Both the position numbers and the translations under genes were made by a program. From an uncultured Bacteroidia bacterium (GTDB taxonomy: Bacteria > Bacteroidota > Bacteroidia > Palsa-948), in NCBI GenBank assembly GCA_964481195.1, contig CAYZTB010000004.1, forward strand, positions 24,306 to 88,305: DNA of 64,000 bases, in the 5' to 3' direction. Each line of letters opens with the position of its first letter. Positions within the stretch are counted from its first letter, which is position 1. The notes beneath the pieces were generated by a model. The model saw only the letters and a list, made by a program, of their open reading frames with translations, did no database searches and was not told the DNA's origin. Below, one piece after another: positions 16,465 to 63,647 of this stretch.

Positions 16465-16644
16465 CTTCGACAAGCTCAGTCAACGGGGAGTTTTTTGTGT
16501 CCGAGTAATTTCTGGTAGTTGAGCAGTTTCTGATGATTGAGCTGCTCCAGTGGTTGAGCAGTACCTGGTAGTTGAGCTGCTCCGGTGGTTGAGCAGTACC
16601 TGGTGGTTGAGCAGTACCTGGTGGTTGAGCTTGTCGAAACCACC
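16459..16644. repeat. Family B inverted REP pair enclosing a 7-unit 17/18-bp tandem array
   Basis: CGTTGAC-TTCGACAAGCTCA-GTCAACG at 16459-16485; TTGAGC cores at 16519, 16537, 16554, 16572, 16589, 16607, 16625; terminal GGTGGTT-GAGCTTGTCGA-AACCACC. Confidence 0.9.
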
Positions 16645-20017: not shown

Positions 20018-20100
20018 TTCAACACAGAGAGCACAGAGTTTACTGAGATTCACAGAGAAACTCTGTGTTACTCTGTTTGCTTCGCGAACTCTGTGTTAAA
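20018..20100. mobile_element. Gene-less family A (CACAGAG) inward-facing doublet, MITE-like
   Basis: TTCAACACAGAGAGCACAGAG...GAGATTCACAGAG-AAA-CTCTGTGTTACTC...CTCTGTGTTAAA; arms match the flanks of GxxExxY at 62495/62914. Confidence 0.7.
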
Positions 20101-20217
20101 GATTTTATTATTCGTATTAAAATACGTTTAATAGCAAACAATAACATTCAAGCTAAAACTCTTTCAATAGCTCTTAATAAATTATATCTTTGCGCCACAA
20201 TCTTAAATATAAAAATT

Positions 20218-28588: not shown

Positions 28589-28972
28589 ATGCTGACAGAA
28601 AATCAACTATCAAATAAAATAATCGGACTTGCGATGCAAGTTCACACCACACTGGGTCCGGGCCTGCTCGAAAGCGCATATAAGGAGTGCATGCAATACA
28701 AAATAAAAAAAGCGGGTCTATGCGTAGAAAAGGAAAAAGCCATGCCACTCATTTTTGAAGAAATAAAGCTGGAATGCGCATACCGCATGGACCTGCTCGT
28801 AGAAAGTAAGGTAGTAATAGAGATCAAGAGTGTAGAGGCGTTGAATGATGTACACCTAGCGCAAACACTCACCTACATGAAACTTGGGAGTTATAAACTA
28901 GGGTTACTGATCAATTTTAATGTTGCACATCTAAGAAATGGAATAAAACGTGTTATAAACGGCACTTTGTGA
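28589..28972 (+). CDS. GxxExxY protein (PD-(D/E)XK nuclease superfamily), copy 1
   Basis: [41 protein letters not shown]. Confidence 0.93.
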   Translation: MLTENQLSNKIIGLAMQVHTTLGPGLLESAYKECMQYKIKKAGLCVEKEKAMPLIFEEIKLECAYRMDLLVESKVVIEIKSVEALNDVHLAQTLTYMKLGSYKLGLLINFNVAHLRNGIKRVINGTL

Positions 28973-29070
28973 CCTCTGTGCCAGCCATAGTGTCCTTTGT
29001 GGTTTCGGCTGATAAATACAGAAACCACAAAGGACACAAAGTGAATAAACAGCCCACAAAGGGCACGAAG
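28964..29070. repeat. Family A' doublet overlapping the GxxExxY-1 stop codon
   Basis: CACTTTGTGACCTCTGTG...CCTTTGTGGTTTCGGCTG-ATAAATA-CAGAAACCACAAAGGACACAAAG...CCCACAAAGGGCACGAAG. Confidence 0.85.
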
Positions 29071-59430: not shown

Positions 59431-59504
59431 AAATAAAAAATCCCGACCAGTTGAGGTTAGATTAATAAGTGTTTGAAAAACGATACAAAAAAAATTAGTT
59501 TAGG

Positions 59505-59590
59505 CTCCGTGTTACTCTGTGCTCTTTGTGTCTCTGTGTTGGATGTTTTAACACATAGCCCACAGAGTAGTAAGAGTCCCACAGAGAGAC
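59505..59590. repeat. Family A outward-facing doublet downstream of sdhB
   Basis: CTCCGTGTTACTCTGTG...CTCTGTGTT-GGATGTT-TTAACACATAGCCCACAGAG...GAGTCCCACAGAG. Confidence 0.8.
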
Positions 59591-59656
59591 ACCTCTGCTC
59601 CAGATATTTTTGTGCCCCTGCCTGAGAAGATTTTTCTTTACAGAGGCATTAACAGA

Positions 59657-60400
59657 TTATTCAGCAAGATTGGACATCATATATTCTCGGTTCATTCTAG
59701 CAATGTTTGAAAGCGATATCTCTTTTGGACATTCTGCTTCGCAGCTGCCAGTGTTGGTACAATTTCCAAACCCTTCGGCATCCATTTGTGCCACCATACT
59801 TTGTACACGTTCCTTGCGCTCCACATGTCCTTGAGGCAATAATGCTAGCTGAGAAACTTTTGCAGAAACAAAAAGCATAGCCGATGAATTTTTGCAAGCA
59901 GCAACACAAGCACCACATCCAATGCAGGCAGCAGCGGCAAAAGCTTCATCTGCATCGGGCTTTGGAATAGTTATGTTGTTTGCATCTTTTGCGTTTCCGG
60001 TATTTACAGATACAAAACCTCCTGCAGCGATGATGCGGTCAAAACCGGATCGATCCACCACCAAATCTTTCACCACCGGAAATCCTTTGGCTCTCCAAGG
60101 TTCAATTGTTATAGTATCTCCATCTTTGAAAGCACGCATGTGCAGCTGACACGTAGTGGTTCCATCCCAAGGGCCGTGCGCTCGTCCATTAATAAACATG
60201 GAACACATTCCACAAATTCCTTCGCGGCAGTCGTGATCAAAGGCAACGGGCTCCTCGTTCTTTCCAATGAGACGCTCGTTAAGCACATCAATCATTTCCA
60301 AAAACGACATATCTTCCGATATCCCATCCACCGCATAACTGGCAAAGCCGCCTTTCTCGTTTTTGTTTTTTTGTCTCCAGATTTTTAATGTCAAATTCAT
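59657..60400 (-). CDS. sdhB: Succinate dehydrogenase/fumarate reductase Fe-S subunit
   Basis: [29 protein letters not shown]. Confidence 0.96.
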
Positions 60401-60414
60401 AGGTTGTATTTTTT

Positions 60415-60500
60415 CTCAGTGTAACTCTGGTTTTACCTCTGTGTTCTCTGTGTTGAAAAATTTAACACAGAGCGCGCAGAGGCGAATGAGTTTCACAGAG
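60415..60500. repeat. Family A outward-facing doublet between sdhA and sdhB
   Basis: CTCAGTGTAACTC...CTCTGTGTTCTCTGTGTTGAA-AAA-TTTAACACAGAGCGCGCAGAG...GAGTTTCACAGAG. Confidence 0.85.
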
Positions 60501-60502
60501 TA

Positions 60503-62482
60503 TTATTTATAACTACGCTGCGATGGATGAACAATGTCAAAAACCAACTCTTCCTTATGTAATTCAGATTCGCCAACTCCTTTGTATTCCCAGGCTGCTA
60601 CGTAGCTGAAGTTTTCATCATCGCGTTTTGCTTCTCCATCTTCGGTTTGAGATTCTTCACGAAAATGGCCTCCGCAAGATTCTTTTCTGTTGAGTGCATC
60701 TTTACACATTAATTCACCAAGCTCAATAAAATCTGCAACACGACCTGCTTTTTCCAGTTCTAAGTTCATTTCATTTTGCTCTCCTGGAATTCGAACATCC
60801 TTCCAGAATTCTTCGCGCAGCGCACGAATTTCGGCAATGGCTTCGTTCAATCCTTTTTCATTTCTTGCCATGCCGCACTTGTCCCACATGATTTTTCCTA
60901 ATTTTTTGTGGAAATGATCTACGGACTTTGTTCCTTTGATGCTCATTAATTTATCCAGCTGCTCCTGCACTTTCTTTTCGGCTGCTACAAATGCTTCGTG
61001 GTCGGTAGGGATTGCTTTGGTGCGTATGTCTTGCGATAAATATGTTCCGATGGTGTAGGGCAATATAAAATATCCGTCCGCCAATCCTTGCATGAGTGCT
61101 GATGCTCCTAAGCGATTTGCTCCGTGATCCGAAAAGTTTGCTTCGCCCAGCGCGTACAACCCCGGTACGGATGTCATCAAGTCATAATCTACCCACAGTC
61201 CGCCCATGGTATAATGCACGGCAGGATAAATACGCATGGGAGTTTCGTACGGATTTTCTCCGGTAATTTTTGCATACATGTCAAATAGGTTGCCGTATTT
61301 TTCTTTTACCACTTCTTTTCCAAGTTCAATAATCCGTTCGTTGGAAACATTATGCAGGTTTAGTTTGTTAACCTGACTTTTTCCGTAGCGCACAATGGCA
61401 GCAGTAAAATCTAGGAACACCGCCATTTTAGAAGTGCCCACTCCGTACCCTTCATCGCATCTTTCTTTAGCTGCGCGTGATGCCACATCGCGTGGAACCA
61501 AGTTTCCAAAGGCGGGGTATCTTCTTTCTAAATAATAATCTCTTTCTTCTTCCGGAATGTCTTTAGCTTTTCTAGCATCTCCTTTTGCTTTGGGCACCCA
61601 TATGCGTCCGTCATTTCGTAAGGATTCAGACATCAAGGTTAGTTTGGATTGATGATCTCCCGAAACAGGAATGCAGGTAGGATGTATTTGAGTGTAGCAA
61701 GGATTTCCAAAGAATGCTCCTTGCTTATGCGCTTTCCATGCTGCGGTTACATTAGAACCCATGGCGTTGGTAGAAAGATAAAATACGTTTCCATAACCAC
61801 CGGTGCAAAGTAAAACAGCGTGACCGAAATGCCTTTCCAGTTTTCCGCTGATTAGATCACGTGCAATGATGCCTCGCGCTTTTCCATCAATCATAACAAT
61901 GTCCAGCATCTCGTGACGAGAATACATTTTTACGGTACCAAGGCCTACTTGTCTTTCTAAAGCAGAATATGCTCCGAGCAAAAGTTGTTGTCCGGTTTGT
62001 CCTGCAGCATAAAAAGTACGCTGCACTTGTGTTCCACCAAACGAGCGGTTGCTTAAATAGCCTCCGTATTCACGAGCAAAAGGAACTCCTTGCGCTACAC
62101 ACTGATCAATAATATTGGAAGATACTTCTGCTAAGCGATATACGTTTCCTTCGCGTGCACGGTAGTCGCCACCTTTTACGGTATCGTAAAAAAGTCGAAA
62201 CACGCTATCGCCATCGTTCTGATAATTTTTTGCTGCGTTAATTCCACCCTGTGCTGCGATGGAGTGTGCACGTCTTGGAGAATCTTGAAAGCAGAAACAT
62301 TTTACTTGGTAGCCAAGCTCTGCCAATGAAGATGCTGCTGATGCACCTGCAAGACCGGATCCTACCACAATGATTTCGATGCTGCGTTTGTTGGCAGGGT
62401 TTACCAGTGGGACAGTGGATTTATATTTGACCCACTTTGTTTCAAGATCTCCCGCAGGAATTTTAGAATTTATTTTGCTCAT
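60503..62482 (-). CDS. sdhA: Succinate dehydrogenase/fumarate reductase flavoprotein
   Basis: [47 protein letters not shown]. Confidence 0.97.
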
Positions 62483-62494
62483 AGTATTTACTTT

Positions 62495-62958
62495 TTTAAC
62501 ACAGAGGGCATGGAGAAAAAGAGTTACACGGAGTTTAAATTGCCGTTTATTTTTCTTCGGATACCTTCTTTTAATAAGGGAACATTAAAGTTAATTAAAA
62601 GTCCAAGTTTTTTATTTGCTAGTTTAAGATACGTTACTAATTGCGCTTCGTGAACAGGTAAAATATGTTCAACAGATTTAAATTCTAAAATTATCAAATC
62701 GTTCACTAGGGTATCAATAACAAATTCTTTATCAAGTTTTTCGCCTTTAAATGTAACTGGTAATATTACTTGTCTTTGCACATACAGCCCTTCTTTCAGC
62801 ATTACGTTCTCAGCACATATTTCATATACAGATTCCATTAAACCCGGACCAAGCTCTTTGTGCACTTCCATGCAACAATGAATTATTTGTTGAGAAAGAT
62901 TATTGTAATCCTTCTCTGTGAAACTCTTAACCCTCTGTGTGCTCTGTGTTGAATTCAT
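62495..62958. mobile_element. GxxExxY gene bounded by inverted family A arms, inserted between sdhC and sdhA
   Basis: Left arm TTTAACACAGAG...GAGTTACACGGAG (62495-62533); right arm CTCTGTGAAACTC...CTCTGTGTGCTCTGTGTTGAA (62914-62953). Confidence 0.75.
62524..62958 (-). CDS. GxxExxY protein, copy 2
   Basis: [41 protein letters not shown]; N-terminal [15 protein letters not shown] and C-terminal NSV* are repeat-encoded. Confidence 0.93.
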
Positions 62959-62963
62959 ATTCT

Positions 62964-63647
62964 TTAGAACGTATTGCCTGCAATGCCGAAGTAAAACAAA
63001 ACAGGAATGGACGCGAAGCCTACAAACACAATTCCGAAAGCAAACGCACTTCCGATTAGGGATAATACAGGCATGTATTTTTTATTATTTAATCCTAAGC
63101 TTTGAAAAGCAGATTGGAAGCCATGGTTTAAATGAAATGATAAGATGAGGACAGATACAACATACAAAAGCACATACCAGCCATTTTGAAAAGCAACTTT
63201 CACTGCTTGTGCTACGTTTAGTTGATCTTCACCACCAACGGTGCCGGAGATTCGGTAAGGAACAAAGAAGTGCCAAAGGTGTACCACGATAAAGAAAAAT
63301 ATTAAGCTGCCGGTAATACCCATGTTGCGAGAAAACCAATTGCTGGTTTCGCCCACTTTGTACATCGCATATTTTACTGGACGCGCATCGGAGTTTTGTT
63401 TGGTTAAATTAATGGCTTGTAATACATGCACGATGATGGCTCCAAACAAAAATACTTCTACTATACGAATGAATAAGCTGTGTACTAAGGTGTGAGAATA
63501 CTCTACAAAGGCAAGACCTCCGTCAGAAGCAAACAATAATAGGTTTCCGTAAAGGTGCTCCACTAAAAATACGCAGAGGAATAAGCCGGTAGCAGCCATC
63601 ACAGTTTTTCTGCCAAGGCTGGAATTTAAGAATTGGGTAATGGTCAT
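62964..63647 (-). CDS. sdhC: Succinate dehydrogenase cytochrome b subunit
   Basis: GRKTVMAATGLFL, HLYGNL, VHLWHF, HLNHGFQSAFQSLG. Confidence 0.95.
   Translation of the reverse strand: MTITQFLNSSLGRKTVMAATGLFLCVFLVEHLYGNLLLFASDGGLAFVEYSHTLVHSLFIRIVEVFLFGAIIVHVLQAINLTKQNSDARPVKYAMYKVGETSNWFSRNMGITGSLIFFFIVVHLWHFFVPYRISGTVGGEDQLNVAQAVKVAFQNGWYVLLYVVSVLILSFHLNHGFQSAFQSLGLNNKKYMPVLSLIGSAFAFGIVFVGFASIPVLFYFGIAGNTF

Follow-up and report, generated by a model that had tools for sequence, protein, structure and literature searches.

Outward-facing repeat doublets on both sides of sdhB in an uncultured Bacteroidia bacterium: possible gene-less satellites of a GxxExxY nuclease cassette

What is the nature of the two short repeat structures that stand on either side of sdhB in an uncultured Bacteroidia bacterium of the Palsa-948 lineage? 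The question is raised by a stretch of 64,000 nt (the window; its source genome is labelled G000), in which repeat arms facing away from each other are found at 59505-59586 and 60415-60500, as the original prediction had placed them, and in which the same operon carries, 2 kb upstream, a cassette made of a GxxExxY gene and arms of the same family. We argue here that these outward doublets would be stand-alone, junction-type copies of the repeat module of this cassette, in which a downstream-type and an upstream-type arm meet directly at their gene-distal T-rich tails, and that the feature maintained in them is probably the word CACAGAG and not the stem.

Each doublet comprises two arms of about 37 nt, every arm consisting of four 9-10-nt units with the word CACAGAG, and forms an interrupted, imperfect palindrome of 82-86 nt with the overall plan of an arm ending in CTCTGTGTT, 9 nt, and an arm opening with AACACAGAG. 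In doublet 1, which lies 70 nt past the sdhB stop codon, the left arm (59505..59540, minus strand; CTCCGTG tta CTCTGTG ct CTTTGTG t CTCTGTG TT; nhmmer E 4e-5) is of the downstream type with four full words, the centre (59541..59549, no strand; GGATGTTTT) is made of two abutted T-rich tails, and the right arm (59550..59586, plus strand; AACACATAG cc CACAGAG tagtaaGAG tcc CACAGAG; E 1.5e-8) is of the upstream type with a degenerate third word. Doublet 2, located at the sdhA/sdhB junction, starts 2 nt past the sdhA stop codon and ends 14 nt short of the sdhB ATG; it associates a downstream-type left arm (60415..60454, minus strand; CTCAGTG taa CTCTGG .. CTCTGTG tt CTCTGTG TT; E 5.4e-8), a centre (60455..60463, no strand; GAAAAATTT) and an upstream-type right arm (60464..60500, plus strand; AACACAGAG cg CGCAGAG gcgaatGAG ttt CACAGAG; E 7.2e-10). 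When arms are compared in all their contexts, the 9-nt centres correspond to the T-rich tails borne by every arm; the centre thus consists of two arm tails, and the arms are therefore in effect abutted. The spacing of 3-7 bp initially reported requires the TT(G/A)A tails to be included in the arm, since the distance from GTGTT to AACAC is 9 nt in both doublets. With regard to phasing, GAG is found at positions 9, 18, 27 and 37 from the AACAC end in nearly all of the 27 arms compared from four genomes, an arm being composed of four tandem units of 9, 9 and 10 nt with a 4-6-nt T-rich tail in front.

The family occupies all three junctions of the operon, as had been noticed earlier, with the cassette between sdhC and sdhA, a doublet between sdhA and sdhB, and another doublet on the 3' side of sdhB. 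The three subunit genes are all on the minus strand and code for the cytochrome b558 subunit (sdhC, 62964..63647; TIGR02046), the flavoprotein subunit (sdhA, 60503..62482; NF005749, 1190 bits) and, between the two doublets, the iron-sulfur subunit (sdhB, 59657..60400; NF005746, 435 bits). The cassette gene (62524..62958, minus strand) encodes a GxxExxY/PDDEXK_3 protein of 144 aa (TIGR04256, 134.8 bits; PF13366, 132 bits). It is framed by a downstream arm (62498..62533, plus strand), whose inner word contains the three terminal codons of that gene (NSV-stop, 62524-62533), and by an upstream arm (62914..62950, minus strand; E 5.7e-10). At 62907-62958, the upstream arm encodes the annotated first ~20 residues of the protein, which are outside the family profile, and the true start may be located further downstream than annotated. 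In these gene-framing arms, as in a gene-less inward doublet of the same family (20018..20105, no strand) that we used for comparison, AACAC is outermost; the geometry beside sdhB is indeed the opposite one, as originally described. In total, the window harbours eight arms, two framing the gene, two in the inward doublet and four in the outward doublets.

The abundance of these sequences was compared with chance expectation. In the window, CTCTGTGTT occurs 9 times versus 0.38 expected and CACAGAG 20 times versus 3.2 expected, and no shuffle equalled either count. The window represents 2% of the genome, yet it contains 20 of the 162 CACAGAG words (12%). A generic scan for word doublets returned 12 in the genome and 0 in the shuffled genome, and the presence of three of the approximately nine family loci within 3.5 kb has a P of ~3e-4 by simulation. 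Furthermore, contigs from four independent metagenome runs (microbial mat, high share) span both doublets with no differences, and the doublets are therefore not assembly artefacts; the lower-share runs yielded nothing beyond noise, attributable to other organisms and to further family copies.

At the scale of the genome, CACAGAG doublets of G000 comprise six outward ones (the two at sdhB and those on contigs C58, C22, C16 and C18), two inward ones and one gene-bearing pair, and all words taken together amount to nine outward and three inward doublets. The centres of the six are 9, 9, 10, 10, 11 and 9 nt long and all resemble GAAAA/TTTT. The window also holds an outward doublet of the CACAAAG dialect (28965..29061, no strand), directly after a second GxxExxY gene (28607-28957) that has no upstream arm. 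The family reaches up to 21 loci in G015. When the outward core was searched as CTCTGTG-N(0-20)-CACAGAG across 301 genomes of the class, near-identical outward cores were found 21 times in G015, 7 in G013, 6 in G006, 4 in G183 and 4 in G065, while inward cores prevail elsewhere (10 in G006, 9 in G225); an alternating five-arm array is present in G225 (C26) and a mixed array in G013 (C36). Both geometries are thus genuine, propagated forms, and this count, which had been proposed together with the original prediction, reveals that neither orientation nor spacing is random. A sub-family of six single arms with the outer end TTAACAGCCTTTAAACACAGAG, mostly without a nearby partner, was also noticed in G000 (C12:16131, C25:21857, C47:17187, C53:163, C62:5521 and C16:26133), and tandem 18/35-nt repeats resembling GGTAGTTGAGCAGTTTCT, unrelated to the CACAGAG family, lie at 16485-16637 of the window.

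The composition of the outward doublets relates them to the cassette. In the cassettes of G000 and G006, the third word of the upstream arm is degenerate, leaving words at positions 2, 11 and 30, whereas all four are present in the downstream arm. Every outward doublet of G000 (six of six) and G004 (three of three), as well as the G006 family, combines one arm of each type. In G013, the cassette ends in TTACAC and the outward centres read GTGTAA-A7-TTACAC. Judging from these sequences, an outward doublet resembles what would result from joining the resident cassette's two ends outside to outside. We considered the left/right asymmetry as a sign of two deeply distinct ends; it reduces to decay of the third word, which makes it a useful but soft character.

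Comparison with a sister species indicates what is conserved in the doublets. The SdhA protein of G004 is 95% identical to that of G000, with 82% identity at the DNA level and 54.6% at third codon positions, and in G004 an outward CACAGAG doublet likewise follows the sdhA stop, at the equivalent site. Between the two sdhA/sdhB doublets, 54 of 57 word positions (95%) are identical, against 7 of 21 in the spacers and 6 of 10 in the loop (54/57 versus 13/31 for spacers and loop together; Fisher P 6e-8), and the three word changes are uncompensated. An arm pairs no better with its own partner than with foreign arms (-31.3 versus -36.0 kcal/mol; permutation P 0.98). Since own arms pair no better and word changes are uncompensated, the stem is a consequence of the words and not the selected feature; on this ground we rejected a selected stem.

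Which factor might read these words? All GxxExxY genes inspected, namely 7 in G000 (where they represent several dialects) and about 45 in G004, G006, G013, G015 and G225, are framed by arrays of their own word, such as CACAGAT, CACAAAG, CGCAAAG, CACTAAA, GATTACA, TACGAAT or TATGAT. Mapped on the tree of GxxExxY proteins, word class requires 14 changes, compared with 23-28 in 1000 label shuffles; the word flanking each gene tracks the phylogeny of its protein. In the genus, G000, G004, G006 and G007, each with a CACAGAG cassette or a remnant of one, are the only genomes to contain CACAGAG arms; the five that lack such a cassette have none. As for the protein itself, E42, D82, E92 and K94 are intact and invariant in six paralogs. 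Its AlphaFold2 model (pLDDT 87.7) has Cas4 SSO0001 and lambda exonuclease as best folds in the PDB, with weak TM-scores of ~0.47, and predicts a PD-(D/E)XK core with a restriction-endonuclease-like fold. A sequence search for structurally solved relatives found none.

The junctions at which the family is found appear to be hot spots with a long history. The cassettes of G000 and G006 share 78.5% identity at the DNA level (78.0% for sdhA) and 87% at the protein level; the cassette has diverged as much as sdhA, and its insertion is therefore old. In the sdhA tree, G006 groups with G002 and G007, whose sdhC/sdhA spacer is an empty 6 nt, so that the G006 cassette implies either precise loss on several occasions or renewed insertion at an identical point. 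In the corresponding spacer of G004 (L002, 124 nt), the cassette is decayed: the upstream arm is intact and followed by ~50 nt of the GxxExxY 5' end, then by sdhA, the rest of the gene and the downstream arm being deleted. The sdhA/sdhB junction is empty in G002 (14 nt) and 37 nt long in G001; it holds the CACAGAG outward doublet in G000 and G004, a CACTAAG outward doublet at the same spot in G005, and in G006 an insert with flanking TACGAAT-type words that reaches the contig end. G013 (L010) has a 485-nt spacer with an open reading frame (ORF) framed by inverted GTTAGTT/AACTAAC arrays, whose product resembles, by eye, a four-helix-bundle protein of the type encoded by 23S intervening sequences (IVS). 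Unrelated hairpin repeats, one of the GTCATCCTGAAC..GAATGAC and another of the cgtcattgcgagcgaagcgaagcaatctc type, are found there in G003 (L001), G008 (L004) and G007 (L006), and G025 carries a 683-nt insert that looks coding. A second hot spot is shared upstream of a thiolase gene, where G000 (C17:23379-23723, ACGAAT words) and G006 (L064, ACAGATT words) have a cassette and G004 (L084) a gene-less CACAGAG outward doublet. On the other side of sdhB, relatives (L001, L004, L005, L006) have, between sdhB and a TPR gene, a gene of ~105 aa, presumably YbjQ-like from inspection by eye; it is missing in G000 and G001, and the G000 spacer (59431-59656) holds the outward doublet instead. No target duplications or outer terminal repeats were seen around the six G000 copies, whose insertion boundaries cannot be set because the nearest genomes are ~20% diverged and their intergenic DNA does not align.

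In other genomes, outward doublets travel inside transposable elements. The outward doublet of G015 is enclosed in a miniature inverted-repeat transposable element (MITE) whose terminal inverted repeats measure 15 bp (GTTACTATTCACCCC) and whose target duplications measure 8-9 bp; the MITE that encloses the one of G006 has terminal inverted repeats of 13 bp (TAGGACTTACGCA) and, in 3-4 of 5 copies, duplications of 5 bp. Near-identical multi-copy doublet units exist in G006, G013 and G015, the moving unit being the enclosing MITE in two of them. With regard to inward doublets, a multi-copy element resembling an insertion sequence (IS) and starting with CTCGTATGTTTGCGAAATTAAATAAAC sits inside inward CACAGAG doublets, in their downstream arm, at no fewer than six contig ends of G006. 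Its position in the arm is constant (L023-L027, L031-L034), and it is present at unrelated sites too; it is either an IS targeting the repeat, as some IS target repetitive extragenic palindromes (REPs), or one composite repeat that includes the doublet.

Taken together, these observations lead us to favour, tentatively and with slightly less than even confidence, the view that the doublets represent arrays of words that the cognate GxxExxY nuclease recognises, and that they behave as gene-less, junction-type satellites at permissive junctions. If the word is maintained and not the stem, then a sequence-specific factor would use the arrays as its recognition sites; the most likely one is the cognate GxxExxY PD-(D/E)XK protein, each lineage of which has a word of its own. 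The founding outward doublet might have arisen when two cassette ends were joined, as a circle or a tandem junction, and would then have been propagated as a unit. Its descendants would persist as REP-like satellites at hot-spot junctions, with long vertical inheritance and occasional copying, loss or capture by transposable elements. Any effect on sdh mRNA would be a by-product, for which the stable hairpin 2 nt past the sdhA stop is the candidate.

Several points weigh against this proposal. The division of arms into upstream and downstream types is our own, reflects mainly the degree of third-word decay and fails in G015, and copies derived from one founder are not independent counts. G015 has 21 outward CACAGAG doublets, while none of its 17 inspected GxxExxY genes forms a pure CACAGAG cassette, and its outward copies move inside the MITE delimited by terminal inverted repeats and target duplications. 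The words of G004 are perfect although most of its sdh cassette gene is lost. Independent insertions of the G000 and G004 doublets at a hot spot would also give the contrast between words and spacers, in which case the words would be maintained at the level of the family and not at the sdhA/sdhB locus. Finally, no binding or cleavage is described for any GxxExxY protein in the searchable literature, where the names GxxExxY and PDDEXK_3 are seldom mentioned and never tied to repeats.

Could the doublets instead be RNA stem-loops of the sdhCAB transcript, selected by the host to set subunit expression through a block to 3' exonucleases, processing sites or ribosome stalling? The predicted hairpins on the mRNA strand have low energies, -35.8 kcal/mol (z -6.7) and -35.4 kcal/mol (z -3.4), within the range of z-scores (-3.4 to -7.2) of the family loci, all of which are intergenic. 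The immediate proximity of one hairpin to the sdhA stop codon fits such a role, as does the recurrence of doublets at this junction with the same word in G004 and with CACTAAG in G005, and there are precedents, as E. coli REPs contribute to mRNA stability and, within 15 nt of a stop codon, stall ribosomes (PMC12306157). On the other hand, at least three of the six outward doublets of G000 lie between divergent genes, neither at 3' ends nor inside operons, and an operon-internal role is therefore not the general function of the family. The relatives have unrelated inserts at the sdhA/sdhB junction or leave it empty at 14 nt, so that the operon needs no hairpin there. Four repeats of one word per arm are not needed to build a hairpin, pairing between arms is no stronger within a doublet than across doublets, and word changes go uncompensated. 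No terminator-like feature accompanies the hairpins: a scan for intrinsic terminators finds none at either doublet, the sdhA/sdhB hairpin is followed by A6, and the T8 run at the sdhB 3' hairpin lies 12 nt beyond its base and is not a directly following T-tract. The idea, raised with the original prediction, that the sequences might be conserved terminators unrelated to GxxExxY flanks is not borne out, as they belong to the GxxExxY flank family and none of the six doublets has a terminator-type tail. In Rfam 15, nothing reached the gathering score, sub-threshold matches being generic miRNA-precursor hairpins (28 bits versus 72). We regard a host-selected RNA function as unlikely.

The doublets might also be inert fossils, that is, the downstream/upstream junction left by a circularised or tandemly duplicated cassette, with no present function or activity. 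The presence in each doublet of one arm from each cassette end, with abutted tails and no spacer, is what such an origin would leave, the family is clustered around the cassette, and the population data contain no sign of activity: no joints, circles, excision or variants were seen in the contigs of the four runs, from which rare forms could escape, and the circular junctions suggested earlier were thus not encountered. Against inertness, the words have stayed 95% identical between G000 and G004 while synonymous sites are near saturation, and the near-identical multi-copy outward units of G006, G013 and G015 represent a propagated form. Moreover, a circle junction between sdh genes would bring gene remnants, and none is present; we consider this scenario rather improbable. 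Least probable of all, in our opinion, is that the doublets are carried, as core or cargo, by ordinary MITEs that an unrelated transposase mobilises, the G000 copies being old MITEs with eroded terminal inverted repeats. The elements of G015 and G006 do contain the doublet within terminal repeats and target duplications, but none of the six G000 copies has an outer inverted repeat or target duplication. The same doublet resides in two different MITE families, which suggests capture rather than origin, and doublet ends match the ends of the resident cassette in G000 and G013.

How do the doublets compare with known systems? REPs and the bacterial interspersed mosaic elements (BIMEs) that they form in Enterobacteria and Pseudomonas offer the best-fitting analogy. 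They, too, are short intergenic imperfect palindromes located past stop codons and between operon genes, arranged as inverted pairs of both polarities and as alternating arrays (here G225:C26), and they are possible IS targets, to be compared with the G006 inward doublets interrupted by one IS-like element, or perhaps forming a composite repeat with it. The differences reside in the arms, which consist here of four phased heptamer words and not of one 20-40-nt palindrome, in the low copy number (~9 loci), and in the words, which differ among co-resident families, each tied to its own small nuclease gene. REPs carry a GTAG or CGTC tetranucleotide tag at one end (PMC3733652). Such a tag is absent from the arms, which open with a T-rich tail and AACACAGAG and close with CACAGAG. 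The suggestion that the structures are doublets in the style of BIMEs or REPINs (REP doublets forming hairpins) therefore stands as regards their intergenic location, palindromic nature, multiple copies, both pair polarities and alternating arrays, but not as regards formal membership, as Y1 genes are flanked otherwise. REPINs and their REP-associated tyrosine transposases (RAYTs; PMC3116915, PMC3337134) share with our system a hairpin doublet, repeats of the same kind on both sides of a gene, prolonged vertical persistence and gene-less copies that equal or outnumber the gene-bearing one. Here, unlike in REPIN-RAYT systems, the gene codes for a ~120-aa PD-(D/E)XK (PF13366) protein instead of a Y1 transposase of the HUH class, and several gene copies and dialects coexist per genome (7 in G000) instead of one RAYT. 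We looked for a RAYT-type REPIN in G000 and discarded this candidate: the genome has four Y1 (PF01797) matches, whose flanks carry other hairpins and no CACAGAG arms. Two of these IS200/RAYT-type genes (C18:2158-2442 and C23:18357-18650) have short GC-rich hairpins on their flanks, among them cccgatagctatcggga and ccccagcggggc; this hairpin type also occurs in the sdh spacers of G015 and may represent a separate REP-like system in the same genomes.

Junctions of IS circles or dimers, as known for IS3, IS30 and IS256, place two element ends in outward orientation with almost no spacer, and are transient, reactive and attached to the element body. The doublets resemble them in that two different ends are abutted, with a centre of 9-11 nt that contains only tails. 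They differ in being chromosomal, flanked by sdhA, sdhB and TPR genes, and fixed in the population. The resemblance to the abutted ends of circular transposition intermediates, put forward initially, is thus retained for the composition (both arm types, no spacer) and abandoned for the state of the copies, which are fixed in four assemblies, have a counterpart at the same site in a sister species and are propagated as units. Another parallel is provided by the Ssn GIY-YIG nucleases and their NTS/SRM repeats (PMC11893778), where a small nuclease gene likewise accompanies a dispersed repeat, the sequence of which is specific to each homolog. Ssn proteins belong to another nuclease superfamily, and NTS is a single motif and not a phased inverted array; site-specific binding and cleavage have been demonstrated for Ssn (PMC11893778), whereas for GxxExxY proteins they are presumed. 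IVS-like ORF cassettes also come close: the ORF at the sdhA/sdhB junction of G013, assigned to this family by eye, is framed by inverted arrays of its own word, an architecture identical to that of GxxExxY, and seems to differ from it by its protein family.

It is improbable, in our estimation, that the outward doublets record an end-to-end joined (circular or tandem) GxxExxY cassette as the trace of a transposition-like cycle run by a PD-(D/E)XK nuclease that reads phased heptamer words. If they did, the fixed upstream/downstream composition, together with the spacer-less A/T centre, would constitute the first trace, at the structural level, of a class of mobile elements without described counterpart, based on a minimal nuclease resembling Cas4 or lambda exonuclease, and the sdhC/A and sdhA/B junctions, together with the region upstream of the thiolase gene, would be its docking sites.

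GxxExxY/PDDEXK_3 proteins form a large family with no known function. The doublets show that the repeat module associated with them is found, and spreads, independently of the gene, in a second defined geometry to which both cassette ends contribute, and this composition of two different ends is a useful structural detail added to an undescribed nuclease-plus-repeat system. As conservation bears on the words and not on pairing, the arrays provide a concrete candidate substrate for the GxxExxY protein. In sister species, the same few operon junctions hold different dialects, gene-bearing or gene-less forms, or nothing, so that gain and loss at these junctions would be directly observable given strain-level genomes. 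For the bacterium itself, a hairpin of -36 kcal/mol located 2 nt past the sdhA stop codon, in a core respiratory operon, is a plausible candidate modifier of subunit stoichiometry.

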